Shown in pieces: positions 3,441 to 62,654 of a DNA stretch of 64,000 nucleotides. Location: the IMG/VR virus record IMGVR_UViG_3300045051_001511; one strand, 5' to 3'. The DNA is from an uncultured virus (IMG/VR IMGVR_UViG_3300045051_001511) (Duplodnaviria > Heunggongvirae > Uroviricota > Caudoviricetes). The position numbers were made by a program, and so were the translations under genes. Numbering within the stretch: position 1 is the stretch's first letter; every line of letters begins with the position of its first letter. The notes beneath the pieces are model-generated. The model ran no database searches. It saw only the letters and a list, made by a program, of their open reading frames with translations, and was not told where the DNA came from.

Positions 3441-3629
3441 CAGCGCTCGTGTAGCCAATGATAGCTGGCGCGTCGGTGTGGCCGACGATAGCCAGAAGCG
3501 CGACGTGGCCTAAGGCCATTGCGCCGCGCATGAAGAGAGAAAATTAGGCCGACACCAACGGCCTGGGCCTGAGCCCACAATGAACGCGGCCGGTATATCG
3601 CTCGTAGCGCCAATCCGGCCGCTACTTTC

Positions 3630-3701
3630 GGGGACGTAGCTCAGTGGTAGAGCGGCGGCTTTGCAAGCCGTAGGTCGCGGGTTCAACCCCCGCTGTCTCC
3701 A
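3630..3701 (+). tRNA. tRNA-Ala(TGC)
   Basis: Full cloverleaf: acceptor GGGGACG/TGTCTCC with G3:U70, D arm GCTC/GAGC, anticodon loop TTTGCAA, T arm GCGGG-TTCAACC-CCCGC; CCA not encoded. Confidence 0.95.
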
Positions 3702-3810
3702 TCGCGCACAGCAAGGAGGTCACCAATGCGGGCCCCTTTGCGCGGTCGAACGCATTGAGAAAGGGCCGATGCAGATCAGCGGGAACCGCCCGGCGAATCG
3801 GGGCGGACGC

Positions 3811-3917
3811 GGGAGCGAGATAGCAGGCGTTCTAGCTTCCTCTATGCCTGCTGCGAAGAAGAGGCCCTGGGCTTCTCACTTCGAGGCGTCGAGCGGGTTC
3901 AATTCCCGCCGCTTCCA
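3811..3917 (+). ncRNA. tRNA-mimic structured RNA, copy A
   Basis: 7-bp acceptor GGGAGCG/CGCTTCC plus T arm GCGGG-TTCAATT-CCCGC enclosing two non-tRNA hairpins; 107-nt ungapped homolog at 53777..53883 with compensatory changes. Confidence 0.75.
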
Positions 3918-4026
3918 AGAGGCGATGTTACCTGACAGGGGCGTTGAGGGGAAAACGTAGACCCCTCCTGAAAAGAGCGATCCTGCCCTCGCCCGGGCTA
4001 GGCCGACCGACGCTCGGCTATTTCTT

Positions 4027-4098
4027 GTGACCGTCGTCCAAGGTTGGAGGACATCGGCGTAGCAAGCCGAGATTTGGGGTCAACGCCCAACGGTCACA
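4027..4098 (+). tRNA. Non-canonical tRNA-like gene, anticodon AGC
   Basis: Acceptor GTGACCG/CGGTCAC, D stem GTCC/GGAC, anticodon stem TCGGC/GCCGA with loop GTAGCAA, T stem TTGGG/CCCAA with loop GTCAACG. Confidence 0.65.
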
Positions 4099-4185
4099 GT
4101 CCTTGCGCTCACGGGACCATGCGGCGGGTTTCCTCCTTTGCCGCCGTCGCCGCGCAGTCCGGCGCCCGTGAGCTTCTTTTCCATG

Positions 4186-4273
4186 AGACGAAAGCGCCCG
4201 CTCCCTGGGCTCCTTGGGGCGAGCGCGCGAGGGCCTTTCGGACTGGATCGGCCGTCGCCGTCGAGGAGAAAAA
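4186..4273 (+). promoter_or_regulatory. Conserved structured leader upstream of the 4274 gene
   Basis: Homolog at 53891..53978; GACG/CGTC stem closes two hairpins right before RBS GAGGAG. Confidence 0.6.
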
Positions 4274-4543
4274 ATGCTGTACGAAGTCGAAGTTACGTGC
4301 CGCATCTATGTGTCGGCGGAGTTCGCGGACAAGGCCGCGGTCGAGAAACTCGTCGTGACGAGGGTCGCCTCGGAGGAGTGGCTGCTACAGGTCCGCGAGG
4401 GCGTCGAGTGGGGCGTGGGCAAGTACCTGCTTAAGGGCCTGTCCGCGGCCGTCGGGCCCGTCGAGCCCTTCCGGATGGATGGCACCGTCGCGGTGCGGCC
4501 GGTCGGTGAAGAGAAAGTGCAGGACGAAGAGGAGGAATCATGA
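4274..4543 (+). CDS. Hypothetical phage protein
   Basis: RBS GAGGAG; paralog 53979..54239 (MLYEVEV.CR.YVSAEF). Confidence 0.75.
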   Translation: MLYEVEVTCRIYVSAEFADKAAVEKLVVTRVASEEWLLQVREGVEWGVGKYLLKGLSAAVGPVEPFRMDGTVAVRPVGEEKVQDEEEES

Positions 4544-12849: not shown

Positions 12850-15800
12850 ATGAAAATGCTTCATCTCGCGGACATCCACAAGAACACGAAGCGCTATCGC
12901 GATGTCGAGATCTCCCTCGACGTGGCCGAGGAGACGGCCAGGGGCGAAGAGATCGACCTCTTTGTCCTCGCCGGGGACCTCTATGACGGCGCCGAGCAGA
13001 ATAGCGAGATCGGGATGCACGACCCCTTCGCCGCTCGGATCCAACGCCTCGGCGATATCGCCCCGGTGGCGATCGTCTACGGGACCCCGACGCACGATAT
13101 CCCGGGGTCGCTCGACATCCTCGAGCGGCTGGCCTGCCGGTACGGGATCACAATCCTCCGCCCGGGCCAGGCCTACTTCCTCGACCAGCGCCAGATCGTG
13201 ACCGAGCCGACCTCGACATCCCAGGCCATCCTCTTCGGCATGCCCGAGCCTGGGCGATCCTGGATCGCCTCCCGCACGACCGAAGCCGGGAAGGCCAAGA
13301 CGGCCGAGGAGATCACCGCCGAGCTCAAGGAGCTCTCCGCCGCGATGCTCCTCGGCTACGGTGTCCGGCGCCGTGAATTCCCGTCCCTCCCGGCCGTCCT
13401 CGTCTATCACGGCCAGGTCCGCGGCTGCAAGCTCTCGAACGGCATGACCCTGCCCGACGGTCAGGTCTCGGCGGAGGACCTGCGCCAGGTCGGCGCCGAC
13501 TACTACGCCCTGGGCGACATCCACGAGCCCCAGCAGATCAAGGGGCTCCCGGCCTACTACCCCGGGTCGATCTATACGGACTGGGGGGAGTACCACAAGG
13601 CCGGTTGCAACCTTGTCGAGATCGCTCATCCTGTCGATCCCGAAACCAACGAGCTGTTTTCCTTCGACGGCACGGACGTCGATGTCAAGGTGACTCGCGT
13701 CCACTTCCCCCACCCGCAGCGCGCCAAGATCTGCATTCACTTCGGCGAGACCTTCCTCGGATCGGACATCAAGGGCCGGATAGTTTGGCTCGAGATGACG
13801 GCCACCAAGGAACAGGCCGCCGGTATCGATACCGATGAGCTCGAGGCCCTCCTCCTGAAATCGGGCGCCCTCCCCGGATCCCGCGCCATCCTCGACGTCC
13901 CACCGACCGAAACCGTCCGCGCCGGTGAGATCGCCAAGAAGGCGACCCTCGAGGAGAAGATCCTCGTCTGGGGCGAGAACTCCTCCATCGAGATCCCCGA
14001 TGGGGCCCGCGCGAAGGCCCGCGAGCTCGAGGCCGAGGTCGGCTCCCTGGCGGCGCTGTCAGGCCCCGAGCGCAGGATCCGCCAGATATGGACCCGCCTT
14101 CGCGGGAGCCGCGGCTTCTGGGCGAGGCAGAAGAAGGACGAGGTCTTTATTGACTGGGAGAGCTATGGCGAGGGCGTGGTGGCTTTTATTGGGCCGAATG
14201 GAAACGGCAAGACGACCACCTACGAATTCGGCAAGCCGTGGCCCATCCCTGTCTCTCGCCCCCCTAAAACGCTCAAGGCTCACTTCCGCCTGCGGGACTC
14301 CGCGATCGAGAATGTCTCCCTCGAGGAGGTTTCGGGCGTCTATTACCGGACCCTCGTCAACATCGATGGCGCCAACAAATCGGGCGAAGCGAAATACTTT
14401 TTCTACAAGGGCCCAGGCCGGGACGGTCCCTGGGAACCCTACAGTGCCGAGGCCACCTCCGGCCGCCAGGATCCCTTCCTCGCCGCGATCGACGAAGTTT
14501 TCGGTTCCATGGCGATCTACATGCGCACGGCTTTCGTCGCGCAGAAGGCGACGGCCGACTACCCGGATCTCGCTGACGCGACCAAGGGTGAGAAAAAGCA
14601 GCTCATCGCCGAACTCGTCGGCAAGGATTATTCGCCCTACGGCGCCGCGGCCAAGCTCCACGGCGATACCCTGGAGTCGGAGACGATCCGCCTCGACGCG
14701 ACGATCGCCGCGGCGGCCGGGGTCGACGACGACATCGCCCGGTTCGAGCTCGCGATCGCCGACGCCGAGGAGCGGGAGCGGGCCGCGGCCGGTGACGAGG
14801 AGCGGGCGATAGAGCGAGGCCTCCGGCTCAAGGCCGAGCGCGAGGCCTTCGTCCTCCTCGTCAAGGAGCTCGACCGCAAGGAGCAGCGCAGCGCCCAGCT
14901 AGAGCACGAGCTCGACGAGTGCCGGGCCGCGGTCACGAAGGCCGACGAGGAGGTCGCTCTTTTCTCGACCGCCGCGAATGGGCGGGGCGCGGCGGAGACC
15001 GAGCTTGCGAAAAGCGTCGAGCTCGAAAAGGAAGCCGGCGCCCTCCGGGCGGAGAAGGCCCGGATCGACGAAAAGAACCACGCCGCCCTCGTCGCCTACC
15101 AGGAAGAGCAGAGGGTGGCCGACCTCCGGCGGCGCTCGGCGCAGTCTGACCTAGACGCGGCACGAAAGGCGCTCGCCGAGGCGGAGAAGGCCGAGGCGCT
15201 CACCCTCGCCCAGGTAGACCCCGAGGCGGAGGCCAGGGTCGAGGCTGCCGAGAAGGAGGCCGCTGCGGCCGCCGCGGACCTCGACCTCGCCTTCATAGCT
15301 AAGGAATCGGCCGACAAGGAGCTTAAAGAGCTCGACGAAAGCCTCGAGGAATCGCGGCTCCAGCACCAAACCACCTTACAGAGCCAATTACAGAAGGCCC
15401 GCCAGGCAGTCTCCGAAGCAGAGCGCGCGTTAGCTGTCGCCCAGGCCAAGCTCGAGAGCAATCCGGAGCCGGCCGAGGACTGCCCCTACTGCGGGCAATC
15501 CCTCCCCGAGGGAATCTACGAGCCAAAGCTCCACGAGCACCATCAGGCCCAAGATGAAGTCAAACGCCTAGAGGGCCTCGTAGACGAGGCGGACAAGGTC
15601 CTGAAAGCGGCTCAGAAGGGATACGAGGATTGCGCCCGCGCATTCTCCGAGATCCAAGCCCGGCGCCCAGCCCTCGCAAACAAGGCCCTTGCAGCTCTGC
15701 AGGATGCCGGATCCGCGCAGCGCGCCGCCGATGCCGCGAAGACCTCCCTCGAGACGGCCAAAGCCGCCGCCCAAGCCTCAAAGGTAGCCCAGGAAGCCCT

Positions 15801-16836
15801 TGCCGGGCTCTCCGCGCAGGTCGTGGACGCTCGCGGCATCGTCGAGAGCGCCACGGCCAGGCTAGACGCCCTTTCCCTCCCCCCACCCCCGGAGCCCGTG
15901 CCCTTCCCCGGCGCCCAGCGCCTGGCCGAGCTCGAGGCGGACCTCGATTTCCTCGACCCCGCGGCCGCGCGCGACATCATCCGCAAGGCCGACGAGGCCG
16001 ACATCCGGATCTCCGAGGCCCGTCGACGGAAAGCCGAGAAGCAGGCCCGGGCCGAAGAGCTGGCCAGGGAGCGCACGGAGATCCTCGCCTGCATCCACGT
16101 CGACCCCTCTCGCTCCCAGCTCGCCTCAAAAGACGACGCCCTCGAGGCAGAACGCGAGCATCTCACGGCGGCCCGGAGCGCCGGCGCTGCGGCCAAGGCC
16201 TTCGGGCTGTCAGCCAAAGCAAGCCTCGAAGATGCAAGGAAGCGCGAGGCGGCGCGCGACGAGGCCAGCCGGGAGAGGAGCGTCAAAGAGACCGAGATCG
16301 CGCAATGGCGCCTCCTTGAGCGCGCCGTGGAGGGCGTCCGCGACCTCGAGCTCGATGCGCTCGCGCCCTCGATCGCCGATGTCGCCACGAAGCTCCTCCA
16401 GAGCTCCGGCCGCGAGGGCCACATCGAGATCGATACGACCCGGATGAGCTCGGGCAGCGCCAAGAAGGCGAAGCAGATCGAGGATTTCCTCATCTTCCAC
16501 GTCGGCCAGGACGGCGAGCGGCAGGATATCGCGACCTGCTCCGGCGGCGAAATGGTCTGGATCCGGAAGGCCCTCTATGACGGTTTCGCGATCATCCGCG
16601 CTAGGAACGCGGGGATTCGTTTCATGACCGCCTTCCTCGATGAGACCGACGGGGCCCTCTTCCCAAAGGATCGCCAGGACTACTACCGGATGCTCGAGGC
16701 GGCCCACCGCGAGAGCGGACGCTACCAGACCATCCTCACAACGCATTCGCCCGAGATCCAGGCGATGGCGGCGCAGACGATCGACGTGACCAAGCTCGAG
16801 GCCCGCGGGGCCGCGGGGAAGGAGAGTGCAGCGTGA
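12850..16836 (+). CDS. SbcD-SbcC (Mre11-Rad50) fusion nuclease/ATPase
   Basis: HLADIH, GDLYD, GTPTHD, GDIH; GPNGNGKT; coiled coil with CPYC hook; CSGGE, FLDE, TTH. Confidence 0.9.
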   Translation: MKMLHLADIHKNTKRYRDVEISLDVAEETARGEEIDLFVLAGDLYDGAEQNSEIGMHDPFAARIQRLGDIAPVAIVYGTPTHDIPGSLDILERLACRYGITILRPGQAYFLDQRQIVTEPTSTSQAILFGMPEPGRSWIASRTTEAGKAKTAEEITAELKELSAAMLLGYGVRRREFPSLPAVLVYHGQVRGCKLSNGMTLPDGQVSAEDLRQVGADYYALGDIHEPQQIKGLPAYYPGSIYTDWGEYHKAGCNLVEIAHPVDPETNELFSFDGTDVDVKVTRVHFPHPQRAKICIHFGETFLGSDIKGRIVWLEMTATKEQAAGIDTDELEALLLKSGALPGSRAILDVPPTETVRAGEIAKKATLEEKILVWGENSSIEIPDGARAKARELEAEVGSLAALSGPERRIRQIWTRLRGSRGFWARQKKDEVFIDWESYGEGVVAFIGPNGNGKTTTYEFGKPWPIPVSRPPKTLKAHFRLRDSAIENVSLEEVSGVYYRTLVNIDGANKSGEAKYFFYKGPGRDGPWEPYSAEATSGRQDPFLAAIDEVFGSMAIYMRTAFVAQKATADYPDLADATKGEKKQLIAELVGKDYSPYGAAAKLHGDTLESETIRLDATIAAAAGVDDDIARFELAIADAEERERAAAGDEERAIERGLRLKAEREAFVLLVKELDRKEQRSAQLEHELDECRAAVTKADEEVALFSTAANGRGAAETELAKSVELEKEAGALRAEKARIDEKNHAALVAYQEEQRVADLRRRSAQSDLDAARKALAEAEKAEALTLAQVDPEAEARVEAAEKEAAAAAADLDLAFIAKESADKELKELDESLEESRLQHQTTLQSQLQKARQAVSEAERALAVAQAKLESNPEPAEDCPYCGQSLPEGIYEPKLHEHHQAQDEVKRLEGLVDEADKVLKAAQKGYEDCARAFSEIQARRPALANKALAALQDAGSAQRAADAAKTSLETAKAAAQASKVAQEALAGLSAQVVDARGIVESATARLDALSLPPPPEPVPFPGAQRLAELEADLDFLDPAAARDIIRKADEADIRISEARRRKAEKQARAEELARERTEILACIHVDPSRSQLASKDDALEAEREHLTAARSAGAAAKAFGLSAKASLEDARKREAARDEASRERSVKETEIAQWRLLERAVEGVRDLELDALAPSIADVATKLLQSSGREGHIEIDTTRMSSGSAKKAKQIEDFLIFHVGQDGERQDIATCSGGEMVWIRKALYDGFAIIRARNAGIRFMTAFLDETDGALFPKDRQDYYRMLEAAHRESGRYQTILTTHSPEIQAMAAQTIDVTKLEARGAAGKESAA

Positions 16837-20413: not shown

Positions 20414-21115
20414 ATGGCGAAGTCCAATAGCGCGAATGCAAAGGCCCCGGCGAAGAAGACCCCTGCGAAGGGTCGCTCCGCCGTGGGCGCGCGCTCTCGG
20501 ACCACGAAGGCTAGTACCTATGCGAAGAAACAAAGCCCGGGCAAGACCACTAAGCCCGCTCGGAAATCTTCGGCGCCCTCACGCGCGCGCGGAGCCGCGA
20601 AGAAGCCCGCCCCCAAGAAGCAGACCATCAAGCAAGCAGCCGCGGCCCTGGGTGCTGCCCTCGCTTCGCCCTCCATCCCCCTCGCCCCTCCGCCTCCTCG
20701 CGGCCGTGGCCGCCCGAAGGATACTCCTGACGTCTGGACGCAAGAGCATATCGAGGAAGTCGCAGAGCAGCTCTGGGACTATATCGAGTCGACACCGTGC
20801 CCGACCGAGGCCGAGTTCTGCTACAAGTTTCTCGTTGCCCATCAACGCCTCGGAGATATTCCGCTCCTCCGCCAGCTCAAGGAGTTCATGTTCGCGAAGC
20901 GCCAGGCCTTCACGATTGGGAAGGGCATCAAGCTTGGCCAGGGACAGGGACCGCTCGGTTCCTTCCTCGCGAAGCTTGCCGCGAACGCGGGGCCGTTCTC
21001 GATGGTCGAGAAGAGCGAAAGCACGATTCACAATCCCCGCCCGTTCTCGAACCTGAGCGACGAGGACCTCGAAAAGATCATCTCCGACGAGTTCTCGAGG
21101 CGCTCCAATGGATGA
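20414..21115 (+). CDS. Putative terminase small subunit
   Basis: Position before the large terminase; GRGRPK motif; basic low-complexity N-terminus. Confidence 0.6.
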   Translation: MAKSNSANAKAPAKKTPAKGRSAVGARSRTTKASTYAKKQSPGKTTKPARKSSAPSRARGAAKKPAPKKQTIKQAAAALGAALASPSIPLAPPPPRGRGRPKDTPDVWTQEHIEEVAEQLWDYIESTPCPTEAEFCYKFLVAHQRLGDIPLLRQLKEFMFAKRQAFTIGKGIKLGQGQGPLGSFLAKLAANAGPFSMVEKSESTIHNPRPFSNLSDEDLEKIISDEFSRRSNG

Positions 21116-22607
21116 CGCCATGTTCGCGGAAGCGATCAACGAAGCGCGCTCGAGGCGGGCCCTGCATTCCCATCTCGAGTTCATGGATTTTACCTGGGTG
21201 AAGAAAGAGCCCTTCGTCAAGGGCTTCCATACGCGCCGAATCTGCGTCGAGATCGATCAGGCCATGGACGCCTTCCGCCAGGGCAAGTCGACCTACATCC
21301 TGATCGCCGTCCATCCTCGATCCGGGAAAACGGATCTCGTCTCTCGCTATCTCGGACCTCATTTCCTCGGCGAATTCCCGGACAAGGAAGTCATCCAGGT
21401 TTCATATCAGGCGAATCTCGCGGCGACCTTTTCGACCTTTGGGCGCAATATCGTGCGCTCGCCCAAGTACCACTCGCTCTACCCGAACGTGCAGCTCTCG
21501 AGCGAGACGAACAAGAAAGACGATTGGGTCCTCGTCGACGAGACCGGGCAGCCGACGGGCGGGCGCCTCTACGCATCGGGTCTTCTCTCGGGCCTCACGG
21601 GCAATGGCTTCCACCTGGGCATCCTCGACGATTACTGCGCCGGCCGTGCAGATGCCGAGTCGAAGGTCTTCCGCGACAAGACCTGGGCGGCATTCACGGA
21701 CGACTTCATGACGCGCCGCGCTCCGGTCTGCATCACGATCGTCCTCGCGACGCAGTGGCACGTTGACGACATCAATGGCCGGATCAAGAAGGAGATGGAG
21801 AAGAACCCGGACTTCCCGCAGTTCAAGGTCTTGTCGTTCCCGGCGCGCGCTGCTGACTACCAGGGCGAGGGCGCCTATCCCGGGAAGTATCTCTTCCTCG
21901 AGCGCTATGACGAGGCCTGGTACCGGTCGCAGTATGCGACCCTCGGGCCCTACTCTTCCTCGGCCCTCTTCGACTGCAACCCCATCGTCCGCGAGGGCGG
22001 CCGTTTTGACCTGTCGACGATCGACTACCAAGACCAGATGCGCGTCGACACCGAGAAGCGGTGGATCCGCGTCTGGGATCTCGCGCACACCGCGAAGCAG
22101 CGAGCCGGGGACGATCCCGACTGGACGAGCGGAACGCTTCTCGCCTTCGTCGACGAGCCCGACGATCCGGTGCCGCACCTGTACGTCAAGGATGTGACGA
22201 GGACGCGAGAGGGCGCAGCCAAGAGAGACCCGATCATCGAGGGCGTTGCGAATGCCGATGGCGTTTTCGTCCGCCAGGCTCTCGGCCATTCCGTCGACGC
22301 CAAGGACGCCTTCGAGTACTTGCAGAAGGCGATGCCGCACATCTCCTGGACGGCGATCCTTGAGCAGGGCGACAAGGGCGCGCGAGCGACACCGCTCGAA
22401 GCGATATTCGCCGCGCCCGGCCATGTCCATGCGCAGCGCGGCGACTGGAACGAGGCCTGGATCGAAGAGCTCCTCCGCTTCGATGGATCCGGCAAGGATC
22501 ATGACGACCAGGTGGACAACCTCTCGGCGGGCTATCAAGAGCAACGCGGCGGGGCGCCCGCCGATCCCCGCGTGGGCGCTGCCCTCGCGGCACGGAGGAA
22601 GCGGTGA
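21108..22607 (+). CDS. terL: Terminase large subunit
   Basis: HPRSGKT, ILDD, TQWH.DD, RVWDLA, HDDQVD. Confidence 0.9.
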   Translation: MDDAMFAEAINEARSRRALHSHLEFMDFTWVKKEPFVKGFHTRRICVEIDQAMDAFRQGKSTYILIAVHPRSGKTDLVSRYLGPHFLGEFPDKEVIQVSYQANLAATFSTFGRNIVRSPKYHSLYPNVQLSSETNKKDDWVLVDETGQPTGGRLYASGLLSGLTGNGFHLGILDDYCAGRADAESKVFRDKTWAAFTDDFMTRRAPVCITIVLATQWHVDDINGRIKKEMEKNPDFPQFKVLSFPARAADYQGEGAYPGKYLFLERYDEAWYRSQYATLGPYSSSALFDCNPIVREGGRFDLSTIDYQDQMRVDTEKRWIRVWDLAHTAKQRAGDDPDWTSGTLLAFVDEPDDPVPHLYVKDVTRTREGAAKRDPIIEGVANADGVFVRQALGHSVDAKDAFEYLQKAMPHISWTAILEQGDKGARATPLEAIFAAPGHVHAQRGDWNEAWIEELLRFDGSGKDHDDQVDNLSAGYQEQRGGAPADPRVGAALAARRKR

Positions 22608-41825: not shown

Positions 41826-42440
41826 ATGCAGATATTCGATGATATTCTTGATGAGAACATTTTCTCGCGGCCTGGAAAGTTGCTCGATCGCGTCGAGATA
41901 ATCGTCGTACATGGCATCGGAAATCCGGGCCAGGGGCCGCGGGGCGCAAGGGATTATTGGAACGGCTTGAAGAATCAGAATCAGGCCGACCTTCTCCCGG
42001 ACATCTCTGCCTCGGCTCACGCGATCATTGGCTTCGATGGATCCGCCCTACGGACGATTCCCGAGATCGAAAAGGCCTTCCACTGCGGCGGCGCGAACTA
42101 CACCGCAATCGCGAAGGAATTGCTGGGCTCGTATTGCTCTCCCGACTCGAGCCCGAACCGCGTCGCGCTCGGCGTTGAGTTCTGCCACCCGGGTGGAGAT
42201 GGCAAACCGCTTCCCGCTACCGAGGCCGGCCTTATCGAATACGTACGGGATCTATGCATTCGCTACAATCGCGATCCCGGCCGTCATGTCCGCATGCATG
42301 GGGAGATCACGGGGAAGGTGTGCCCGAAGTGGTATTTCGAGCACCCCGAGGAGTGGGCCCGATTCCTCCGCCTCCTCCGCGCCGAGACGGAGTGGGCGAA
42401 GTCCCAGCCCGCGCACATCGGCAAAGGGGCCCTCGCATGA
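41826..42440 (+). CDS. Endolysin, N-acetylmuramoyl-L-alanine amidase (Amidase_2)
   Basis: IVVH, SAH, AFHCG, GVEFC, H..ITGKVCP. Confidence 0.9.
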   Translation: MQIFDDILDENIFSRPGKLLDRVEIIVVHGIGNPGQGPRGARDYWNGLKNQNQADLLPDISASAHAIIGFDGSALRTIPEIEKAFHCGGANYTAIAKELLGSYCSPDSSPNRVALGVEFCHPGGDGKPLPATEAGLIEYVRDLCIRYNRDPGRHVRMHGEITGKVCPKWYFEHPEEWARFLRLLRAETEWAKSQPAHIGKGALA

Positions 42441-43596: not shown

Positions 43597-43863
43597 CTAC
43601 TGGCCGGGAGCTTCTCCCGGCCTTTTTGTCGCTATTACCTTGATCTGGATGGTCCCGAGCGCCGGGCCTCGGGCCACGCCGATGCAGTAGTCTGCGAGCC
43701 CGCCAGCCTCCATCTCGCGCCAGGTCTCAGCCCAGGAAGGGAGAGCCCTCGCCCGGTCGACGCCGCAGCCCAAGGACCAGAGCCAGTCGGCGAAGGCGGT
43801 GAAGCCGGCGAGGTTGATCTCCTCGGCATGGGTCATGCCGGGGGCCTTGTAGGAAATGGTCAT
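43597..43863 (-). CDS. Hypothetical protein
   Basis: Convergent 88-aa ORF at the prophage end. Confidence 0.4.
   Translation of the reverse strand: MTISYKAPGMTHAEEINLAGFTAFADWLWSLGCGVDRARALPSWAETWREMEAGGLADYCIGVARGPALGTIQIKVIATKRPGEAPGQ
43602..43627 (+). terminator. Intrinsic terminator ending the late operon
   Basis: GGCCGGGAG-CTT-CTCCCGGCC-TTTTT. Confidence 0.75.
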
Positions 43864-44141
43864 GCTTGAATCATGGCGAATTCCCTCCCCGGCTTCAATC
43901 GCCGGGCCTCCTCTTGCGCGTATTTGTGGGCATGATCTATCTTGACCCAAGGCAATACCAGATAGCGCCGGAAACCTTGAAGGAAGCCGAGATACTTGCT
44001 AACCTCATAGAGGAGTTACGCCATAGCCTTATAGCAGAAAGCGAGCGGGTTTCGACATAGGTTTGCGCCTATTCTGGCGGTTCCGGGTCTTTTTTAGATG
44101 CTTTTTTGTAAACTTTGGGCGCTTTATCCGCCCTAGGGGCT

Positions 44142-51074: not shown

Positions 51075-51734
51075 CTAGTACGGATGCGCATGCACCCATC
51101 CGTACACTTTACCTACGACCTCTACCGCCTGCCCGTCCGCCGATTCGATCCTATCCGGATACCTAGGATTTTCGCTCATGATCCTCAGCTTTTGGGAAAT
51201 CTCGTCGAACTCGACACGCTTGACGATCAGGGAATCGTTTACGCGGAGGACATAGATCCCGTCGCCTCGGATTGAACCAGGCACGAAAACGACCAGGTCA
51301 CCGTCGAAGATCTCGACCCCGGTCATGGAATCGCCTCGGACCTCGAGGGCCCTGGCCCGGGAGGGGTCAGCACCGCGGAGCATTCGCTTCAGGAAGGGGA
51401 GCGTCCCGACCACCTCGGCACTCTCCAGGATCTCCTGGCCGCGGCCGGCGGCGACCTTCTGATTGAGGATGGGCACCGCGTAGATGTTTGGGTCGGGGTC
51501 AATGCACTGGGGAGGCGCAGCGGCCGTTTCTTCTTGCCCTTCGCCGGTTATTAGATACTCGACGGTTGTCCCTAAGGCCTTCGCAACTTTTACAATGACA
51601 TCGGCGGTTGGGTAATTCCGCCGGTTCTTCCAGGATCCGATTGTTCCCGCAGGAATATCAAGATCTGCTGCAATTGCCTTGCGAGTGAGCCCATGGCGGT
51701 CGAGTTCGACCTCCAGCCTTTCCCAAAATTCCAT
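51075..51734 (-). CDS. CI-like repressor (XRE HTH plus S24 peptidase)
   Basis: HTH; VAAG cleavage site; GDSM and VKR catalytic Ser/Lys. Confidence 0.92.
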   Translation of the reverse strand: MEFWERLEVELDRHGLTRKAIAADLDIPAGTIGSWKNRRNYPTADVIVKVAKALGTTVEYLITGEGQEETAAAPPQCIDPDPNIYAVPILNQKVAAGRGQEILESAEVVGTLPFLKRMLRGADPSRARALEVRGDSMTGVEIFDGDLVVFVPGSIRGDGIYVLRVNDSLIVKRVEFDEISQKLRIMSENPRYPDRIESADGQAVEVVGKVYGWVHAHPY

Positions 51735-51830
51735 ACTGCAATTATCGTCCATTTCGTGCAATCATATGCAATCTTTTGCACTTGACTTTATTGCATTTGC
51801 AATCGATACTATGAATATGGATTGCAATAG
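51735..51830. promoter_or_regulatory. cI/cro divergent promoters with TGCAAT operators
   Basis: TTGACT(51782)-17-GATACT; palindrome ATTGCA-TT-TGCAAT in the spacer; several more TGCAAT half-sites. Confidence 0.75.
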
Positions 51831-53626: not shown

Positions 53627-53776
53627 GCCTCCCCCATACAAACGGCCCGCGCTTGACGGCATCAAGCAACTCAGCCTGAGAGCATTCGGGAAGTCGGTAC
53701 GGTGTTTCGGCCCGGCCGGCGAAAGAAGGAAGAGAGGTGATCCGATCTCGCGGCCCGGCGCGTAATCCGGGTTCAT

Positions 53777-53883
53777 CGGGGCGAGATAGCAGGTGGGATT
53801 GCTTCCTCTACACCTGCGGCGAAGAAGAGGCCCTAGGCTTCCCACTTCGAGGCATCGCGTGGGTCCGACTCCCACCGCTCCGT
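53777..53883 (+). ncRNA. tRNA-mimic structured RNA, copy B
   Basis: Acceptor CGGGGCG/CGCTCCG, T arm GTGGG-TCCGACT-CCCAC; homolog of 3811..3917. Confidence 0.72.
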
Positions 53884-53890
53884 TTTTCGT

Positions 53891-53978
53891 AGACGACAGC
53901 ATCCGCCCTTGGGCTCCTTGGGCGAGTGTGCAAAGGCCTTTCGGACTGGAAGCTGCCTTCGCCGTCGAGGAGAAAAGA
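53891..53978 (+). promoter_or_regulatory. Conserved structured leader, copy B
   Basis: Homolog of 4186..4273. Confidence 0.6.
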
Positions 53979-54239
53979 ATGCTTTATGAAGTCGAGGTTC
54001 GTTGCCGGGTCTACGTCTCCGCGGAATTCGGAGGGCGGGATGCGGTCCAAAAACTCGTTCGCTCGCATGTCGTGAGTGAGGATTGGTTGCTCCAGGTGCA
54101 CGAGGGCACGGCGATGGGTCCAGGCAAGTTCCTTATTAAAGGCTTGTCAGCGGAAATCGGCGAGGCCCGGTTTTTTAAAGGAAATGGAGCGGTCGCCCCG
54201 CTCGAGCCTGCAGAAATGGAAGAGGAGATTTTGTATTGA
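53979..54239 (+). CDS. Hypothetical phage protein
   Basis: Paralog of 4274..4543. Confidence 0.75.
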   Translation: MLYEVEVRCRVYVSAEFGGRDAVQKLVRSHVVSEDWLLQVHEGTAMGPGKFLIKGLSAEIGEARFFKGNGAVAPLEPAEMEEEILY

Positions 54240-55652: not shown

Positions 55653-56900
55653 ATGAATCAAGAGAATCTTCCGGCAGTCATCGAGGCATCCGCAAAAGCT
55701 CAGGGCCTCACCCTGACGAACGTTAATCTGATCATGCCTACCGAAACCTTTGGCGCGGTCCTGGGGCAGTTTGACAAGATCACGATTGAAACCGTCCGCG
55801 TATCCGCGGGCGACCCGCGCGAGACCTACGAGCCCAACGGCGAGGGAAAGGGCTTCGCCCTGACGAAAACCTCTCTCCAGAAAATCGCCTCTGCTCTCTC
55901 GATCCAGTGGCATCCCCAGTACACCGGCATCGTTGAAAGCACGGACAAGCGCAGCCGAGCCAAGGCCGTTGGCATCATGCGCAAGCCGAACGGCGAAACG
56001 ATCACCCAGACCGAAGAGAAGACCATCGACCTCGTTGTTGAGGAAGACGACCTTCGCATCAAAGCCGAAAAGGATTCAGAAGGCGGAAAGATCGTTGGTT
56101 GGGAAAAGAACGGGCAGACCGGCAAGAGCTATCCAAGGAAAGAGCCTTGGGCCAGTGAAGGGCAGCGCAAAGACTGGATCGAGCTCCGCATCAAGGAAGG
56201 ACTCAAGCAGAAAAGGAAGTTCAAAGATGAGCTCGCGGTTACCGGCGCAAAGGACCGCGTCATCCGAGCTTTCCTGGCCCTCAAGTCGACCTATACCTCC
56301 GAAGAGCTCTCCCGCCCCCTCGCCTTCCCCCGGGTAACTATGGACACAGGAAAGATGCTGGACGATCCCAGGATGAGGGATTTCGCAATTGGCATGATTG
56401 GGCAGTCAACCGCCTCGCTCTATGGTGCGCCCGCGCCGGCCGCGGAGATCGTCGAATCCGCTCAGCTTGGCCAAACACCGACCCCCTCTACCGCCCAGGA
56501 CGAGAGCCCCCGCCGCGTTGGTCCTGGCTTCGACGAGGAAGTGCCATCTCCTTCTTTGGGTTCCGCCGGCAAAGATCCTTTCGGTGACGACTTTGGAGAC
56601 CCTGCGCCGGCGAAGGATTCGCGCATCATCGTCATTTCGCAAGCGCTGGCCGATTGGTCGGTATCAGACAATGACGTATCCGGACGGGCCCAGCGGATTT
56701 TGGACAGAGGGGAATCGAACCTCAGGATCCTCGAGGCATCTCTCTCGCTCATCAAGTTCGCCGCCTCGGGATTCCTCCGCGAAAAGGGAATCGGCGCTTG
56801 CTTCGATGCCTTGGACAATCACGGAACCGACCCCATCATCCTCGAGAACGTTGCCACTCAGGCGAAGGCTGCATATGACGCCCGGGGAGGGAAGGCATGA
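55653..56900 (+). CDS. Candidate recombinase/SSAP, homolog of 11442..12695
   Basis: KIASALSI, TGAKDRVIRA; directly upstream of the SbcDC fusion. Confidence 0.55.
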   Translation: MNQENLPAVIEASAKAQGLTLTNVNLIMPTETFGAVLGQFDKITIETVRVSAGDPRETYEPNGEGKGFALTKTSLQKIASALSIQWHPQYTGIVESTDKRSRAKAVGIMRKPNGETITQTEEKTIDLVVEEDDLRIKAEKDSEGGKIVGWEKNGQTGKSYPRKEPWASEGQRKDWIELRIKEGLKQKRKFKDELAVTGAKDRVIRAFLALKSTYTSEELSRPLAFPRVTMDTGKMLDDPRMRDFAIGMIGQSTASLYGAPAPAAEIVESAQLGQTPTPSTAQDESPRRVGPGFDEEVPSPSLGSAGKDPFGDDFGDPAPAKDSRIIVISQALADWSVSDNDVSGRAQRILDRGESNLRILEASLSLIKFAASGFLREKGIGACFDALDNHGTDPIILENVATQAKAAYDARGGKA

Positions 56901-59900
56901 AGCTCCTCCATACCGCCGATTTGCACAAGGACCGGGAGCATTTTGCCGAGCTCGAGGCCTCCCTCGATGTCGTCGAGCGGGAGGCCCACGCCCGAAGCGT
57001 TGACCTAATCGCGATTGCGGGCGATCTCTACAACGGAGCAGAACAGAACTCGGAGCGTGATGCCCATGATCCTTTTATTGCGAGGATCCAGCGCCTCGGA
57101 AATATTGCGCCCGTCGCGATTGTCGGCGGAACGCCTTCCCACGATATCCCTGGAAGCCTGGACATGCTCCAGCGCCTGGCTTGCCAATATGGGATTACCA
57201 TCCTGCAGCCCGGGATCCCGTACTTCCTAGATAGATTCAATGGCTGTATCACAAAAACATATGTAGAGGGGCAGGACCTGGCCCTTCTCTTCGGTGTGCC
57301 GGAGCCACAAAAAAAGTGGCTCCTCGCAAATGGAGGAGCCACCGGAAAGGACGAGGGGGACCTTGCGGTCCGACAGGCAATGCGTGGACTGCTTCTTGGG
57401 CTTGGCGGCATCAGAAAGCAGACCCCCGACCTCCCTTGCATCCTGCTATATCATGGCCAGGTTTCCGGCGCAAGGACCGGAACCGGGTATGAAGCAGGAT
57501 CCGGAATCGCTATTTCGAAGGATGACCTCGCTCTTGTCGGCGCGGACTACATCGCCATGGGCGACATTCACTTCCCGCAACAGATACCTGGGCTGCCTGC
57601 ATTTTATCCGGGTAAAGCCTATGCAGGCGATTGGAAAGAGCAGGGCTATAGATTCGGCTGTAATCTCGCGACCGTCGAGTTCGAGCCCTGCTATAAGGAA
57701 GCAGGAAAAGACAGCAGCCTCTTCGGAACGCCGCAATTCGTGGCGACCGTCGAGCGAGTCGATTTCCCTCACCCTGAGCGCCTCAAGATCGAGAGGAAGC
57801 CCGGCGACGAGATTGCCTATGAGACCCTCCCCCTCGAGGGAAAGCTCGTGTGGGAAGACTGGGCCTTCACCCGCGATGAGGCTGAAGCTTTCGACGTGGC
57901 GACCCAGCTCGAGGGACTGCGATCCTTAGGTGCCTTGGAGGGATCGAAGGTCACGACGCGGATCCTCCCGACTGAAACCGTTCGCGCGGGCGAAATCACC
58001 GAGAAGCGCCGGCTACATGAAAAGGTAGTCGTATGGGCTACTAATTCTGCCATCGAGCTCCCTGAGGGAGTCCTCATCAAGGCAGATGAACTCGAGCGAG
58101 ACGCCCAGGCGTCAGGCGCGGCCGGCGACGGAGCATGGATTCGTATTGACCGCCTCGTCCTTCGTGGGGCCATCGGGATTTCGAAGAAGTCCAAGAAGGA
58201 CGAGATCGACCTCAACCTTGAAATGCTAGGCCCCGGTGTATTCGCCCTCGTCGGCCCGAATGGCACGGGCAAGACTACCATCGTCGAAAACATGCATGGC
58301 TGGGCGAGTCTCCTCACGCGCGACGGCACATTGAAGGATCACTTCCGGTTGCAGGATTCCTTCAGGGACTTGTACTTCACCGACTTGCACACTGGGATCC
58401 GTTATCGCGCCCTCATCAACATCCGGGCCGACATTGCTTCGGGAGCGACCGAGTACTTTCTTTTCGAGGACACTGGCGCCGGATTCAAGGCTTGCCCTGG
58501 CATCACAGGAAGGAAAGAGCCATACGAGGCTGCAATTACGAGGCTATTCGGAAGCCTGGAACTCTTCCTCAAAACGGCCTTCCAGACTCAGCGAACATCG
58601 AAGTACTCGCCCGATCTTGCAGACGCCACCCAGGGGCAGCGCAAGGCCCTTTTCGGAGAGCTTGCCGGCCTCGATTATCTAGAGCGCTATCGGGAAGCTT
58701 GCAAGACCCGTGCTGATGCCCTCGAAGTGGACCTCCGCGCGCTTGAAGCGACTATCGTTGCCGCAGCCGACGTCGACGAGGCTCTGCGCATTGCTAGAGA
58801 AGAGATCGAACTCCAGGAAGCCAACGCCCGAAATCGAAGCACCGACGCCGAGATCTCGCTGGAGAAAGGCCGAGGTCTCCGCTCGGAGCTCGATACCCTC
58901 ACCCTCAAGGTTCAAAACCTCTGGGGCAAAAGACAGCGTTATGCCACGATTAGCCGAAGCCTCGCCGAACTCAATGCCGAAATCTCCGCAGCTGATTCCG
59001 AGATCCGGAAATACCATGAGGCGGCCGCAGGGCAGGAAAGCGCACAGACGGAAATCCGTCGAGTTGACGAGCTTGCATCCGAGGCTGCCAGCCTGATAGC
59101 GGACAAGACAAAGCTCGACGAAGCGGACAAGAAACTCCTCGATGCCTTCTGGATCGCTCTCCGCGAGTATTCCCTGAAAGGAGAGGAGCGGAATGCCGAG
59201 CTAAACCGGGCCAAGGCGAGGCTCTCGACCGCTCGCCAAGCCTCGGCCGTTGCAAGGGCCAAACTCCTTGAACCCGTTGCCGATACCTGTCCTACCTGCG
59301 GTCAGATTCTTCCTGTTGATCGCCTTGAAGCTATCCGACACGCGCATGAAGAAGCCACCGAAAAGATCGGTGCCCTAGATTGTGAAGAGGAAAATGCAGA
59401 GGCCGAAGTCGCCCGCCTAACAATCCTCCTCGAGGAAGAGGCGAAAGCAAAACCGACAAAGCCTGATCCGACGCCCTACCCGGGAGACGCCCGCCTTCAC
59501 GAGATCGAGCGAGCCCTAGAATGGCTCGACAGGGCGGCCGCAGAGGCAACCCTTCAGATCGGCCGTGAAGCAAGTGTCAGGATCGAGGAAGGAGAGAGAA
59601 GGAAAGCGTCCGCGCTGACAAAGAAGCTCCCTCTTGACCGCGAGGCCGAAGAGATACGCCTCGAACTCGAGGCCGAAGAAGGCCCAGCTCTCTCTGCACA
59701 GGAAAACAAAAAGGCCGAACTCCAGGAAGAGCAGGAGAAATACACAACCGCCCGCGGCGCGGCTGAGGCGGCCCAGGCCCGCTCCGCGGCCGCTCGGCAG
59801 GCCTTGGCTGCCGCCGAGAAGCGAGGCATCGCGCGAGACGAAGCGAAGGGAAAGAGGGCCGCTGCCGCCCTCGAGCGAGAGGACTGGCGCCTGCTCGAAC

Positions 59901-60409
59901 GAGCGGTGGGCCCGAATGGAATCCAGGCCCTGGAGCTCGACGCACTCGCCCCCTCGATCATGTCGGTGTCAAACGCCCTCCTCTCCGAAGCCTATGGCTC
60001 GCGCTATCAGCTTGAAGTCAGGACAACACGTATTGCCGGCACTGGCTCACAGAAGAAGCAGGTTGAGGCCTTCGAAATCTTCGTCCTGGACACCGAGTCC
60101 GGAGACGAGCAGGAGATAGCCACCCTTTCCGGCGGCGAAGCGGTATGGATACGCAAAGCCCTCTATGACGGCTTCGCTATCATCCGTGCGCGGAACACCG
60201 GGACCAAGTTCCAGACTGTCTTCCTTGACGAGGCGGACGGCGCCCTAGATCCCGCGGCCCGGATGCTCTACCTCCGAATGCTCGAAGCCGCGCACCGTGC
60301 GAGCGGCCGCTTCCAGACGATCATCATCACCCATTCGACCGAGCTCCAGGCAATGGTCGAGCAAGTCATCGACATAGCGGCCCTAGGCCCGCGAAAGGAT
60401 AAGGCATGA
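56897..60409 (+). CDS. SbcD-SbcC (Mre11-Rad50) fusion
   Basis: HTADLH, GDLY, GTPSHD, GDIH; GPNGTGKT; CPTC; LSGGE, FLDE, ITH. Confidence 0.9.
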   Translation: MKLLHTADLHKDREHFAELEASLDVVEREAHARSVDLIAIAGDLYNGAEQNSERDAHDPFIARIQRLGNIAPVAIVGGTPSHDIPGSLDMLQRLACQYGITILQPGIPYFLDRFNGCITKTYVEGQDLALLFGVPEPQKKWLLANGGATGKDEGDLAVRQAMRGLLLGLGGIRKQTPDLPCILLYHGQVSGARTGTGYEAGSGIAISKDDLALVGADYIAMGDIHFPQQIPGLPAFYPGKAYAGDWKEQGYRFGCNLATVEFEPCYKEAGKDSSLFGTPQFVATVERVDFPHPERLKIERKPGDEIAYETLPLEGKLVWEDWAFTRDEAEAFDVATQLEGLRSLGALEGSKVTTRILPTETVRAGEITEKRRLHEKVVVWATNSAIELPEGVLIKADELERDAQASGAAGDGAWIRIDRLVLRGAIGISKKSKKDEIDLNLEMLGPGVFALVGPNGTGKTTIVENMHGWASLLTRDGTLKDHFRLQDSFRDLYFTDLHTGIRYRALINIRADIASGATEYFLFEDTGAGFKACPGITGRKEPYEAAITRLFGSLELFLKTAFQTQRTSKYSPDLADATQGQRKALFGELAGLDYLERYREACKTRADALEVDLRALEATIVAAADVDEALRIAREEIELQEANARNRSTDAEISLEKGRGLRSELDTLTLKVQNLWGKRQRYATISRSLAELNAEISAADSEIRKYHEAAAGQESAQTEIRRVDELASEAASLIADKTKLDEADKKLLDAFWIALREYSLKGEERNAELNRAKARLSTARQASAVARAKLLEPVADTCPTCGQILPVDRLEAIRHAHEEATEKIGALDCEEENAEAEVARLTILLEEEAKAKPTKPDPTPYPGDARLHEIERALEWLDRAAAEATLQIGREASVRIEEGERRKASALTKKLPLDREAEEIRLELEAEEGPALSAQENKKAELQEEQEKYTTARGAAEAAQARSAAARQALAAAEKRGIARDEAKGKRAAAALEREDWRLLERAVGPNGIQALELDALAPSIMSVSNALLSEAYGSRYQLEVRTTRIAGTGSQKKQVEAFEIFVLDTESGDEQEIATLSGGEAVWIRKALYDGFAIIRARNTGTKFQTVFLDEADGALDPAARMLYLRMLEAAHRASGRFQTIIITHSTELQAMVEQVIDIAALGPRKDKA

Positions 60410-61875: not shown

Positions 61876-62009
61876 CCCCTGCCAGTCCCAGGAGCGGGAT
61901 CGTCCGATGCAAGGAGCCCCAGGCGTTGCCTGGTCATCGAGGCCATTTGAAATGGTCCTGATATTTCCTTGCTCGGACGGTCCCGCTCTTGCGCTTTTGG
62001 GACCAGGGG
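61876..62009 (+). promoter_or_regulatory. Long structured leader upstream of terS
   Basis: GGAGCGGGATCGTCCGA-T-GCAAGGA pairs with TCCTTGC-TCGGACGGTCCCGCTCT; outer stems cover the RBS. Confidence 0.55.
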
Positions 62010-62018
62010 AACTGCTCA

Positions 62019-62654
62019 ATGGGTCGGAAGGAATCGAAGAGTCCGGCACAAACGAAAGCCCGGAAAGCGCCTGCAAAGCGAAAAGCCGCGGCCTCGAAAG
62101 ACGTGCCCTCGGATCTTGAGCTAGTCCAAGCTCGAGCCGACTTCGTCCGATTTCTCATTGAGCAAGACTTCCAGGACGCTCGCGGCGCTTATCGCAAGGC
62201 ATACCCAAAAGCGAATCTTTCGACGGCCGGCGTCGAGGCCTGCCGGCTCCTAAAAGATCCCAAAGTCCAGGAAGCTATCGCTGTCGAGCTCAAAGCCGTC
62301 CTTGACGACAAGCGCCTTCCACTCGAAAAGCGGATCCTCGATACATGGGTCGTTCGTGCGTTTTACGATCCCACCGAGATCCTTGACCTCAAGGGAAACC
62401 TCAAGATTACCGAGGCCGCACTTCGAAAGCGGGGCCTCCATGTCTGCATCGACTCGATCAATCGCAAGCTCAACGCTCAAGGCCTCTCCTACCTCGAGTA
62501 CAAGCTCGCGAATAGGGACACCGCGCTCGACATGCTCCAGCGCTATATCGCCATGATCAAGACCCCGGACCAGAAACCTCTCGAGGTCAACCTCTCGATC
62601 GGTCTACCACCAAAACCCTCCGATCTTCCGCCGGAAGGAGGGCAGGATGCGTAG
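62019..62654 (+). CDS. terS: Terminase small subunit
   Basis: AYRKAY...EACRLLKDPKVQ...AFYDP...KL.....AL.ML.R pattern. Confidence 0.8.
   Translation: MGRKESKSPAQTKARKAPAKRKAAASKDVPSDLELVQARADFVRFLIEQDFQDARGAYRKAYPKANLSTAGVEACRLLKDPKVQEAIAVELKAVLDDKRLPLEKRILDTWVVRAFYDPTEILDLKGNLKITEAALRKRGLHVCIDSINRKLNAQGLSYLEYKLANRDTALDMLQRYIAMIKTPDQKPLEVNLSIGLPPKPSDLPPEGGQDA

Follow-up and report, generated by a model that had tools for sequence, protein, structure and literature searches.

A tRNA-like element shared by two tandem prophages: a probable non-decoding RNA apparently descended from a phage tRNA-Ala

The stretch analyzed here (hereafter the window) comprises 64,000 nucleotides (nt) of the uncultured Caudoviricetes virus record IMGVR_UViG_3300045051_001511 (IMG/VR) and consists of two tandem related prophages. 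Prophage 1 (A) runs from before position 1 to about 43.6 kilobases (kb), with a terminase gene at 21108-22607 and an amidase gene at 41826-42440. Prophage 2 (B) has an integrase gene from 44236, a CI-like repressor (51075-51761, minus strand), RusA, and terminase genes at 61989-63939. Each prophage carries one copy, A or B, of a 107-nt element with a tRNA-like top half, which is very probably a selected, structured, tRNA-derived RNA. Recombination and "nin-like" genes lie upstream of it in each prophage (DUF1064 in prophage 1, RusA in prophage 2), methylases, a fused phosphoesterase-SMC protein and terminase lie downstream, and both copies stand 5′ of the same small gene. The element is laid out as follows.

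3811..3917, plus strand: copy A, defined by ungapped alignment, minimum-free-energy (MFE) folding, RNAalifold, pair counts and model R1 (128.9 bits)
3811-3817 with 3910-3916, plus strand: acceptor stem of copy A, with linker 3818-3822
3823-3829 with 3845-3851, plus strand: stem of hairpin 1 of copy A, loop 3830-3844
3835..3844, plus strand: invariant pyrimidine-rich 3′ part of the hairpin 1 loop, GCTTCCTCTA (53801-53810 in copy B, identical)
3853..3887, plus strand: hairpin 2 region of copy A, element positions 43-77 (53819-53853 in copy B)
3854-3883, plus strand: hairpin 2 of copy A, tip 3867-3869, followed by a 9-nt connector, 3884-3892
3893-3909, plus strand: T arm of copy A, with a discriminator A at 3917
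53777..53883, plus strand: copy B, with the architecture of copy A (model R1, 127.6 bits)
53777-53783 with 53876-53882, plus strand: acceptor stem of copy B, whose T loop reads TCCGACT

The ungapped alignment of the two copies has 85 identical positions out of 107, leaving 22 that differ. An earlier note, made from the letters of this DNA, had described this alignment, and it was reproduced together with all of the note's other sequence statements. In a blastn comparison of the prophages, the element forms one block of similarity (3812-3913 against 53778-53879, 82%) and a second block follows (4186-4448 against 53891-54153, 74%), the gap after the first measuring 11 nt in B and 272 nt in A. 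The 5′ flanks of the two copies give no blastn alignment, and the element itself is 79% identical.

Separate folding of A and B yields an identical four-way junction, with which RNAalifold agrees. Its arms are a 7-base-pair (bp) closing stem corresponding to an acceptor; hairpin 1, with 7 bp and a 15-nt loop; hairpin 2, a bulged helix of 5 + 7 bp (12 bp; 5 + 6 bp in copy B) with a 3-nt tip; and, after the 9-nt connector, a T arm with a 5-bp stem and 7-nt loop that abuts the closing stem directly. The division drawn in the earlier note, between a tRNA-like top half (7-bp acceptor plus 5-bp T arm with 7-nt loop) and a lower half unlike D and anticodon arms, holds: the tip of hairpin 2 measures 3 nt (CTG in copy A, CTA in copy B, as noted), hairpin 1 has a 15-nt loop, and tRNA likeness is confined to the top half. 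The folds reach -49.5 kcal/mol for copy A (z score -2.54; 2 of 200 shuffles equal or better) and -46.7 kcal/mol for copy B (z -2.14; 7 of 200). When 30 nt are added on each side, copy B retains its hairpin plus the cloverleaf. No open reading frame (ORF) of at least 50 amino acids (aa) in a shared frame spans both copies.

Compensatory changes in the acceptor, the T stem and an internal hairpin had been proposed, and pair counts bear them out. Three pairs are changed on both sides with pairing kept, namely 1-106 (G-C to C-G) and both 18-36 and 84-98 (C-G to U-A). Three more are changed on one side with pairing kept: 3-104 (G:U to G-C), 4-103 (A-U to G:U) and 19-35 (G:U to G-C). The stems hold 10 of the 22 differences, yet a single pair of 31 is lost, the terminal pair 50-66 in copy B (A-U to A/C). 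In a simulation that placed 22 random substitutions on copy A at the observed transition/transversion ratio over 200,000 rounds, the share of rounds with at most one broken pair was 2.7e-4, rising to 1.2e-3 if the stems had to take 10 of the substitutions; both values are somewhat flattered by a test structure that was derived from the same two sequences. The built-in shuffle control is uninformative for two sequences, its floor being about 1 in 8 (66 of 500 shuffles reach the observed value).

These counts bear on the view that the element is a decaying tRNA-Ala pseudogene, functionless and shared by recent exchange. Such a remnant would account for the silence of the detectors, the noncanonical D and anticodon arms, the aberrant T loop of copy B and the great rarity of copies in databases. 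It accords poorly with 10 stem substitutions that cost one pair and include three double compensatory changes, and with a 5′ flank that has diverged past alignment while the element is still 79% identical, and we consider it very improbable. Since its shape has been retained through evolution, the element is probably a working small RNA rather than a dead tRNA.

Class membership was assessed with ARAGORN and Rfam. ARAGORN calls three genes in the window, neither copy among them, and the sole Rfam match in the window at the gathering threshold is a neighboring tRNA-Ala(UGC) at 3630-3701 (71.5 bits). Neither copy matches the tRNA family (RF00005, cut-off 29 bits), whether the gathering threshold or a limit of E = 10 is applied. 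Under the looser limit, copy A draws a match to transfer-messenger RNA (tmRNA, RF00023) that scores 25.8 bits, below the cut-off of 47, and aligns the acceptor strands and T arm alone, skipping 324 model positions; copy B has no Rfam match up to E = 10. As expected of a tRNA, both copies possess a 7-bp acceptor that stacks on a T stem of 5 bp with a loop of 7 nt, and an anticodon arm (5-bp stem, 7-nt loop, U33) is absent from both folds. The tmRNA D-loop motif falls in gap columns of the cmscan alignment of copy A, and the long-range helix between the 5′ and 3′ parts of tmRNA does not appear in the folds, which have two local hairpins instead. YrlA (RF02553) gives a sole match of 14.2 bits at 3577-3684, over the real tRNA-Ala and none on the element, and the C4 antisense RNA family of P1/P7-type phages is not among the Rfam listings for either copy. 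A Pfam scan of 62 ORFs found no TROVE/Ro60, SmpB, RNA ligase or nucleotidyltransferase domain. The suspicion that neither a tRNA nor a tmRNA is present, with no known family (tRNA, tmRNA, YrlA, C4) reaching its threshold on the element and no Ro60 gene nearby, was thus borne out for every family and domain scanned, the sub-threshold tmRNA match being limited to copy A.

Judged by these comparisons, the element falls outside the tRNAs, the tmRNAs, the tmRNAs consisting of the tRNA-like domain (TLD) alone, the YrlA RNAs and the C4 RNAs. Because the modeled fold places hairpin 1 at the D-arm position and the 3-nt-tipped hairpin 2 at the anticodon-arm position, the predicted RNA is unable to read a codon. 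Standard annotation overlooks such genes entirely, and several look-alikes in related phages are likewise missed.

Several special cases were considered and set aside. Running ARAGORN with introns allowed at an 80% threshold produced mutually contradictory models, including an "intron" model, and these were rejected as spurious. A two-piece tmRNA was dismissed on a tmRNA_permuted score of 15.8 bits against a cut-off of 47. An attP copy of a tRNA or tmRNA end fits poorly with an element in which both halves are present and which lies 9.5 kb away from the integrase. Finally, a U-[A/T]-G-C in loop 1 does not serve as an alanine anticodon, since the residue at position 37 would be a U, the loop is 15 nt long, and such a match has a chance of about 0.2 by our own estimate.

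The surroundings of the element connect it to genuine tRNA genes through the following features.

3630..3701, plus strand: canonical tRNA-Ala(UGC), 109 nt 5′ of copy A, called by ARAGORN and Rfam and preceded by a hairpin
3786..3806, plus strand: GC hairpin 5′ of copy A, 6 bp with a 9-nt loop, ending 4 nt before the element
53754..53771, plus strand: GC hairpin 5′ of copy B, 5 bp with an 8-nt loop, ending 5 nt before the element

Of the 17 tRNA or tRNA-like genes in this phage group, 13 have a perfect GC-rich hairpin (5-7 bp) whose end lies 1-7 nt 5′ of the gene; among these 13 are both element copies, the canonical tRNA-Ala, and a tRNA-Leu and a tRNA-Met of related phages. Random positions in the same DNA pass this hairpin test in 7.0% of 24,000 cases (binomial P about 2e-12). 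This shared upstream form links the element with genes whose maturation by the tRNA pathway is certain. Defining a cassette here by acceptor plus T arm, a 5′ GC hairpin and a position at the early/late junction, we find all three features in both copies. That the element belongs with several other tRNA and tRNA-like cassettes, all fast-changing, at the early/late junction of a small temperate phage family is well supported.

Within the window, model R1 has just one further match, to the neighboring tRNA-Ala (20.3 bits). In that alignment hairpin 1 corresponds to the D arm (both begin TAGC) and hairpin 2 to the anticodon arm; the 5′ junction and hairpin 1 start of copy A align with the segment from U8 through the D stem, and the connector plus T arm with the variable loop plus T arm. 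Copy A carries G1-C72, G2-C71, G3:U70 and A73. From this R1 match and the alanine-type acceptor of copy A and its relatives, the element appears to be descended from a phage tRNA-Ala whose D and anticodon arms were lengthened and remodeled. It shares with the canonical tRNA-Ala (RF00005) the 7-bp acceptor, the 5-bp T arm with 7-nt loop and the four-way junction, and with the neighboring tRNA-Ala the unencoded CCA, the same upstream hairpin and the same phage tRNA cluster. It differs from tRNA-Ala in its 107-nt length and in having neither a 3-4-bp D stem with a GG-bearing loop nor an anticodon arm with U33.

Relatives were sought in several collections. A blastn search of phage GenBank records returned one 25-nt T-arm match only. 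Among viral contigs, two scans with exact patterns gave 0 matches and another found only the contig of locus L129 (loci related to or retrieved with the window carry L numbers), while a pattern allowing a gap of 12-22, outside which the true spacing of 11 lies, gave 118 chance loci, with no copy by R1 among the 80 of 118 that were scored. One metagenome scan yielded 87 stretches, the best R1 score being 24 bits among 80 of the 87; the metagenome stretches were mostly ordinary tRNA clusters and tmRNAs (60 of the 80 loci scanned). The last viral scan, for long genes with an alanine-type acceptor and T arm, yielded 97 stretches, and the best R1 score among 80 of them (29.4 bits) belonged to a TLD-only tmRNA-like gene. 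Contigs from sequencing runs contained near-identical A or B only, with neither ends nor new variants, and no third copy with the same body appeared in any collection searched. The description of the element as conserved in both prophages thus stands as regards the kept structure, and the conservation extends to two related copies, with no third found.

The fused phosphoesterase-SMC proteins, which are SbcCD-like, have 1328 and 1170 aa in the two prophages and are 46% identical in a global alignment. Used as an anchor, the SbcCD-like protein retrieved 4 loci from genomes and 9 from viral contigs. The union of a calcineurin-like phosphoesterase and an SMC/SbcC-like ATPase in one protein (12850-16836 and 56897-60409 in the window, plus strand, and 13 related loci) is a good family marker. 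Model R1, together with a scan for a T arm with matching acceptor strands, located other tRNA-like genes at the same junction in the related phages.

L125: 1047-1122, 1184-1300 and 1751-1831, tRNA-like genes
L129: 1487-1587, tRNA-like gene
L124: 2471-2552, tRNA-like gene
L123: 4234-4303 and 4422-4515, tRNA-like genes
L119: 2192-2291 and 2439-2511, tRNA-like genes

R1 matches these genes at the acceptor and T arm only (12-25 bits). Four reach the Rfam tRNA cut-off (L125c 41.5, L119a 35.2, L123b 34.5 and L125b 29.9 bits) with an oversized insert at the anticodon-arm position; the L124 and L129 elements have no Rfam match. The acceptor strands of copy A, including G3:U70 and A73, recur in L124:2471-2552, L125:1047-1122 (L125a), L283 and L295 on differing bodies, and the 5′ junction motif of A and B recurs in L129 and L230. 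Downstream, L124 is close to prophage A, with a homologue of a 227-aa protein that is 91% identical over 75 aa. The 70-nt gene L123:4234-4303 and the 82-nt gene L124:2471-2552 have the same flanks and are different tRNA-like genes, a difference that looks like cassette replacement. In this phage lineage, as far as the genes compared can tell, the top half is retained and the body is quickly replaced.

Such turnover is what would be expected if the element were purely a processing signal, a form of "tRNA punctuation" in which RNase P and a 3′ nuclease cut the transcript at the borders of modules, the new 3′ end is shielded by the upstream hairpin and the excised RNA is functionless. The retention of acceptor and T arm on freely varying bodies, exemplified by L123 and L124, fits this explanation, as do the upstream hairpin at 13 of 17 such genes, the location between gene modules and the fact that the role requires no anticodon. 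Two features of the body speak against it. In hairpin 2 and in the 3′ part of loop 1, conservation is not confined to pairing and includes the sequence, and the compensatory change in hairpin 1 shows selection on the body. Moreover, a canonical tRNA with the same kind of cassette would suffice as a cutting signal. We regard a pure processing signal as possible and rather doubtful.

The sequence constraint is unevenly spread over the element. The invariance of the loop segment GCTTCCTCT and of the CGAAG/CTTCG arm, which the earlier note had singled out, is evident in the alignment. Loop positions 25-34, made up of GCTTCCTCT and one A, show 0 differences in 10, against 4 in the preceding 5 loop positions. 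Within the hairpin 2 region, 2 of 35 positions differ, against 20 of 72 elsewhere in the element (Fisher p = 0.0096). This constraint on loop 1 and hairpin 2, going beyond pairing, favors a sequence-specific role for the putative RNA. CCTC stands at the center of the invariant loop, which by eye could form about 6 pairs with GAGGAG 5′ of the start codon of the small gene.

The earlier note had proposed two functions, an antisense regulator displayed on a scaffold processed by RNase P or a tRNA decoy, and either may apply. The mechanism we prefer, to which we give somewhat less than an even chance as a whole, is a processed tRNA-like scaffold with a trans-acting loop. RNase P, RNase Z and the CCA-adding enzyme all read the coaxial minihelix formed by acceptor and T arm. 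The element would be transcribed inside the rightward phage transcript and excised like a tRNA by RNase P and a 3′ nuclease, CCA would be added, and a stable RNA of about 107 nt would remain. Its working surfaces would be the invariant pyrimidine-rich loop 1 and the nearly invariant hairpin 2. In the preferred version, the CU-rich loop would pair with purine-rich, Shine-Dalgarno-like sites of phage or host mRNAs, the tRNA shape serving as a scaffold for processing and stability. The same cuts would provide the upstream mRNA with a protective 3′ hairpin and the small-gene mRNA with a new 5′ end.

Several observations weigh against this scaffold mechanism and, in part, against the assignment as a selected RNA. 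The element is known from DNA sequence alone. Its covariation rests on one sequence pair, there being only two copies with this body in everything searched, and copy A folded with 30-nt flanks adopts an MFE structure other than the cloverleaf. Copy B has neither G3:U70 nor A73, and has C at the T-loop position that is normally U55. The loop invariance is weak by itself, at about 0.04 by our own arithmetic (12 changes in 45 unpaired positions). The pairing of about 6 bp with the ribosome-binding site of the small gene was judged by eye, and any CCUC-containing loop would match that site. The complement of the loop is not enriched in the window (26 matches with at most one mismatch, 24.1 expected), where the loop also has no extended antisense partner. 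In L124, L125 and L129, the counterparts at the same position differ greatly in body, an argument for the top half mattering more than the body does.

The acceptor raises a different possibility, that of a decoy or sponge for a tRNA-binding factor such as alanyl-tRNA synthetase, SmpB, a tRNA-modifying enzyme or a tRNA-cleaving defense nuclease. Copy A has G3:U70 and A73, and copy B has instead G3-C70, G4:U69 and U at position 107. The presence of the G3:U70 alanine determinant in copy A and not in copy B, already remarked in the earlier note, is confirmed by pair counts. U55 is the normal T-loop residue in tRNA, and the altered determinants and T loop may weaken tRNA-type recognition of copy B. 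Its loss of G3:U70 and A73 with the rest kept argues that alanylation is not the function shared by A and B.

In favor of a decoy, G3:U70 and A73 occur in copy A, L124, L125a and L125c, rapid body turnover fits an arms race, and TLD-only tmRNA-like genes are common in viral contigs. From the last viral scan, 82 elements were extracted from 80 of the 97 loci; 12 are ordinary tRNAs by ARAGORN with a chance upstream match, and many of the remainder are genes of 79-111 nt bearing the hallmarks of the tmRNA tRNA-like domain. As a control, 18 of 20 phage loci picked by eye match RF00023 at 42.3-69.9 bits, 16 of the 20 at or above the cut-off of 47; L283, the sole A-like gene in this set, has no tmRNA match. 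According to excerpts of two reports, mycobacteriophage DS6A carries a TLD-only tmRNA, and a similar molecule inhibits tmRNA, perhaps by titrating SmpB (PMC4131195, PMC11915505). Phage tRNAs are described in another report as countering tRNA-targeting defenses (PMC10264068). TLD-only tmRNA genes may be far commoner in phages than recorded, DS6A being the one described case in these excerpts.

For the element itself, the comparison points the other way. Like tmRNA's tRNA-like domain and TLD-only tmRNA, it is phage-borne and combines an alanine-type acceptor and T arm with no anticodon. It differs in having neither the D-loop motif nor the long-range helix, in its two local hairpins and in the absence of G3:U70 from copy B, and its tmRNA scores (25.8 bits for A, none for B) contrast with 42-70 bits for real TLD-only genes. 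Copy B has lost G3:U70 and A73 with all else kept, no anticodon loop is available as bait for an anticodon nuclease, and G3:U70 is present in only 4 of the 13 listed tRNA-like elements of the phage group (our own count). A decoy role therefore seems unlikely. Examples of the TLD-only type among the viral contigs (L222-L301) include L224:1201-1285, L226:1201-1283, L240:1198-1279 and L270:1201-1308.

The region between the element and the small gene differs in the two prophages and contains the following features.

3916..4177, plus strand: stretch of about 262 nt present in prophage A only, between element and leader, with GCTTC at both sides
4186-4273 and 4274-4543, plus strand: conserved leader and small gene of prophage A (89 aa, beginning MLYEVEV)
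53891-53978 and 53979-54239, plus strand: conserved leader and small gene of prophage B (86 aa)

The leader measures 88 nt, and the small proteins of A and B are 53% identical. Folding of the leader 5′ of the small gene is no better than that of shuffles (z -0.94 and +0.07). Within the prophage-A-only stretch, a three-way structure at 4107-4173 (fold z -2.2) is closed by a stem of 9 bp and includes two hairpins, of which the second is small; the 13-nt loop of the other, GTTTCCTCCTTTG at 4128-4140, contains a full CCTCC and, as a second such loop beside the CCTC-bearing loop 1, also favors a sequence-specific role. A T-rich run (4174-4183) follows this structure and aligns with five T directly after copy B, whose own position 107 is a T that opens a five-T run (53883-53887).

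This arrangement suggests that the element might be a cis-acting leader or terminator of the late operon, a GC-rich closing helix followed by a U run and relieved by an antiterminator, with an incidental tRNA shape. The 3′ strand of the copy B acceptor does run into five T, and the homologous T-rich run of prophage A follows the stable structure at 4107-4173. The element also comes after RusA and an unassigned 203-aa protein, at the place where lambdoid phages have their late promoter with its terminator. In prophage A, though, the element is 262 nt from the T-rich run and its structure is still kept, and a four-way junction is unusual for an intrinsic terminator. Two pattern scans found no terminator-like site at either copy, the only site in the intergenic stretch near copy A being 4001-4019, and promoter scans found none. 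We accordingly hold a terminator to be quite unlikely.

The small protein offers few further clues. Two-sequence patterns find no relative in viral or genome contigs, a set of 5.8 billion proteins contains a single near-identical entry on a 1410-base contig, and a four-sequence pattern returned only the L125 and L129 contigs. These two loci alone among the related ones have homologues of the small gene, downstream of their tRNA-like genes. No PHROG family matches the small protein, whose predicted structure is poor (pLDDT, a predicted confidence score, 61.5). The 203-aa protein 5′ of copy B has no ESM Atlas match.

Codon supply, or evasion of tRNA-cleaving defenses, is the usual explanation for tRNA genes in phages. 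By keeping of the tRNA only what processing and charging enzymes read, with its remaining arms preserved through compensatory change, the element points to another use of the tRNA shape, be it a scaffold for a regulatory loop, a transcript cut site or bait for a tRNA-binding factor. Among known RNAs, perhaps the nearest analogy is offered by the phage T4 tRNA cluster, which encodes small, stable non-decoding RNAs, species 1 and 2 (rnaC/rnaD), matured together with tRNAs; host, phage type and size differ. In mitochondria, tRNAs punctuate long transcripts as processing signals. The YrlA RNAs have ends that form a Ro-binding stem and an internal tRNA-like module. The element resembles them in size and in having such a module, but its ends form the acceptor. 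An excerpt of one report describes these YrlA-type bacterial Y RNAs as non-coding, about 110 nt long and equipped with a tRNA-like module, some being found in phages (PMC4201824). According to excerpts of two others, the tRNA-shaped mascRNA is cut from the longer MALAT1 transcript by RNase P and a 3′ nuclease and does no decoding (PMC8457004, PMC11693755). Both mascRNA and mitochondrial punctuation are eukaryotic or organellar, in contrast to the phage element, which is known here from its sequence. The finding is real, and the element is best seen as one of the tRNA-derived non-coding RNAs of phage tRNA clusters, not as a new category.

A broader reading is possible, if somewhat unlikely. Temperate phages of this group, and perhaps numerous other phages, might carry fast-evolving, tRNA-derived, non-decoding RNAs that are excised by host tRNA-processing enzymes as a phage "tRNA punctuation" and reused as regulators. 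As part of this joint reading, the element would display an anti-Shine-Dalgarno-like loop on a tRNA scaffold, and its excision would leave a hairpin-protected upstream mRNA. If true, these RNAs together with the TLD-only tmRNA genes would make up a broad and largely uncatalogued phage RNA class that exploits the acceptor/T-arm module. The value of the present case is limited by its two copies, and the wider pattern is the more interesting lead: aberrant tRNA-like genes missed by annotation, their upstream hairpins and the viral TLD-only tmRNA genes.

Some further tRNA-like signals were recorded in and around the window. An odd tRNA at 4026-4099 (plus strand), inside the prophage-A-only stretch, is called Ala(AGC) by ARAGORN and has no Rfam match; it is drawn with 8 acceptor pairs and no G3:U70, has an unusual T loop, GTCAACG, and folds with a z of -4.5. 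A wobble A tends to recur in the aberrant ARAGORN calls, as AGC (window, L125a), AGG (L123) and AGA (L129), some of these calls arising only with introns allowed or thresholds lowered. An 88-nt tRNA-Glu(CTC) called by ARAGORN at 16587-16674 (minus strand) lies inside the SbcCD-like ORF, is unsupported by Rfam and is probably false; in L123, a tRNA-Glu(CTC) call at 16135-16208 lies downstream of the SbcCD-like gene on the opposite strand. L220:1649-1739 (equivalent to L125:1098-1188) joins the 3′ half of one tRNA-like gene, about 60 nt, and the 5′ strand of the next gene, and so imitates a permuted tmRNA (tmRNA_permuted 23.8 bits, cut-off 47), probably through a coincidence of adjacent genes. 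Lastly, a 74-nt candidate at 43840-43913 (plus strand) has a 7-bp closing stem with G:U at 3-70, a T-arm-like hairpin and no Rfam tRNA match; situated at the prophage junction, about 320 nt 5′ of the prophage 2 integrase, it may be an attachment-site remnant.

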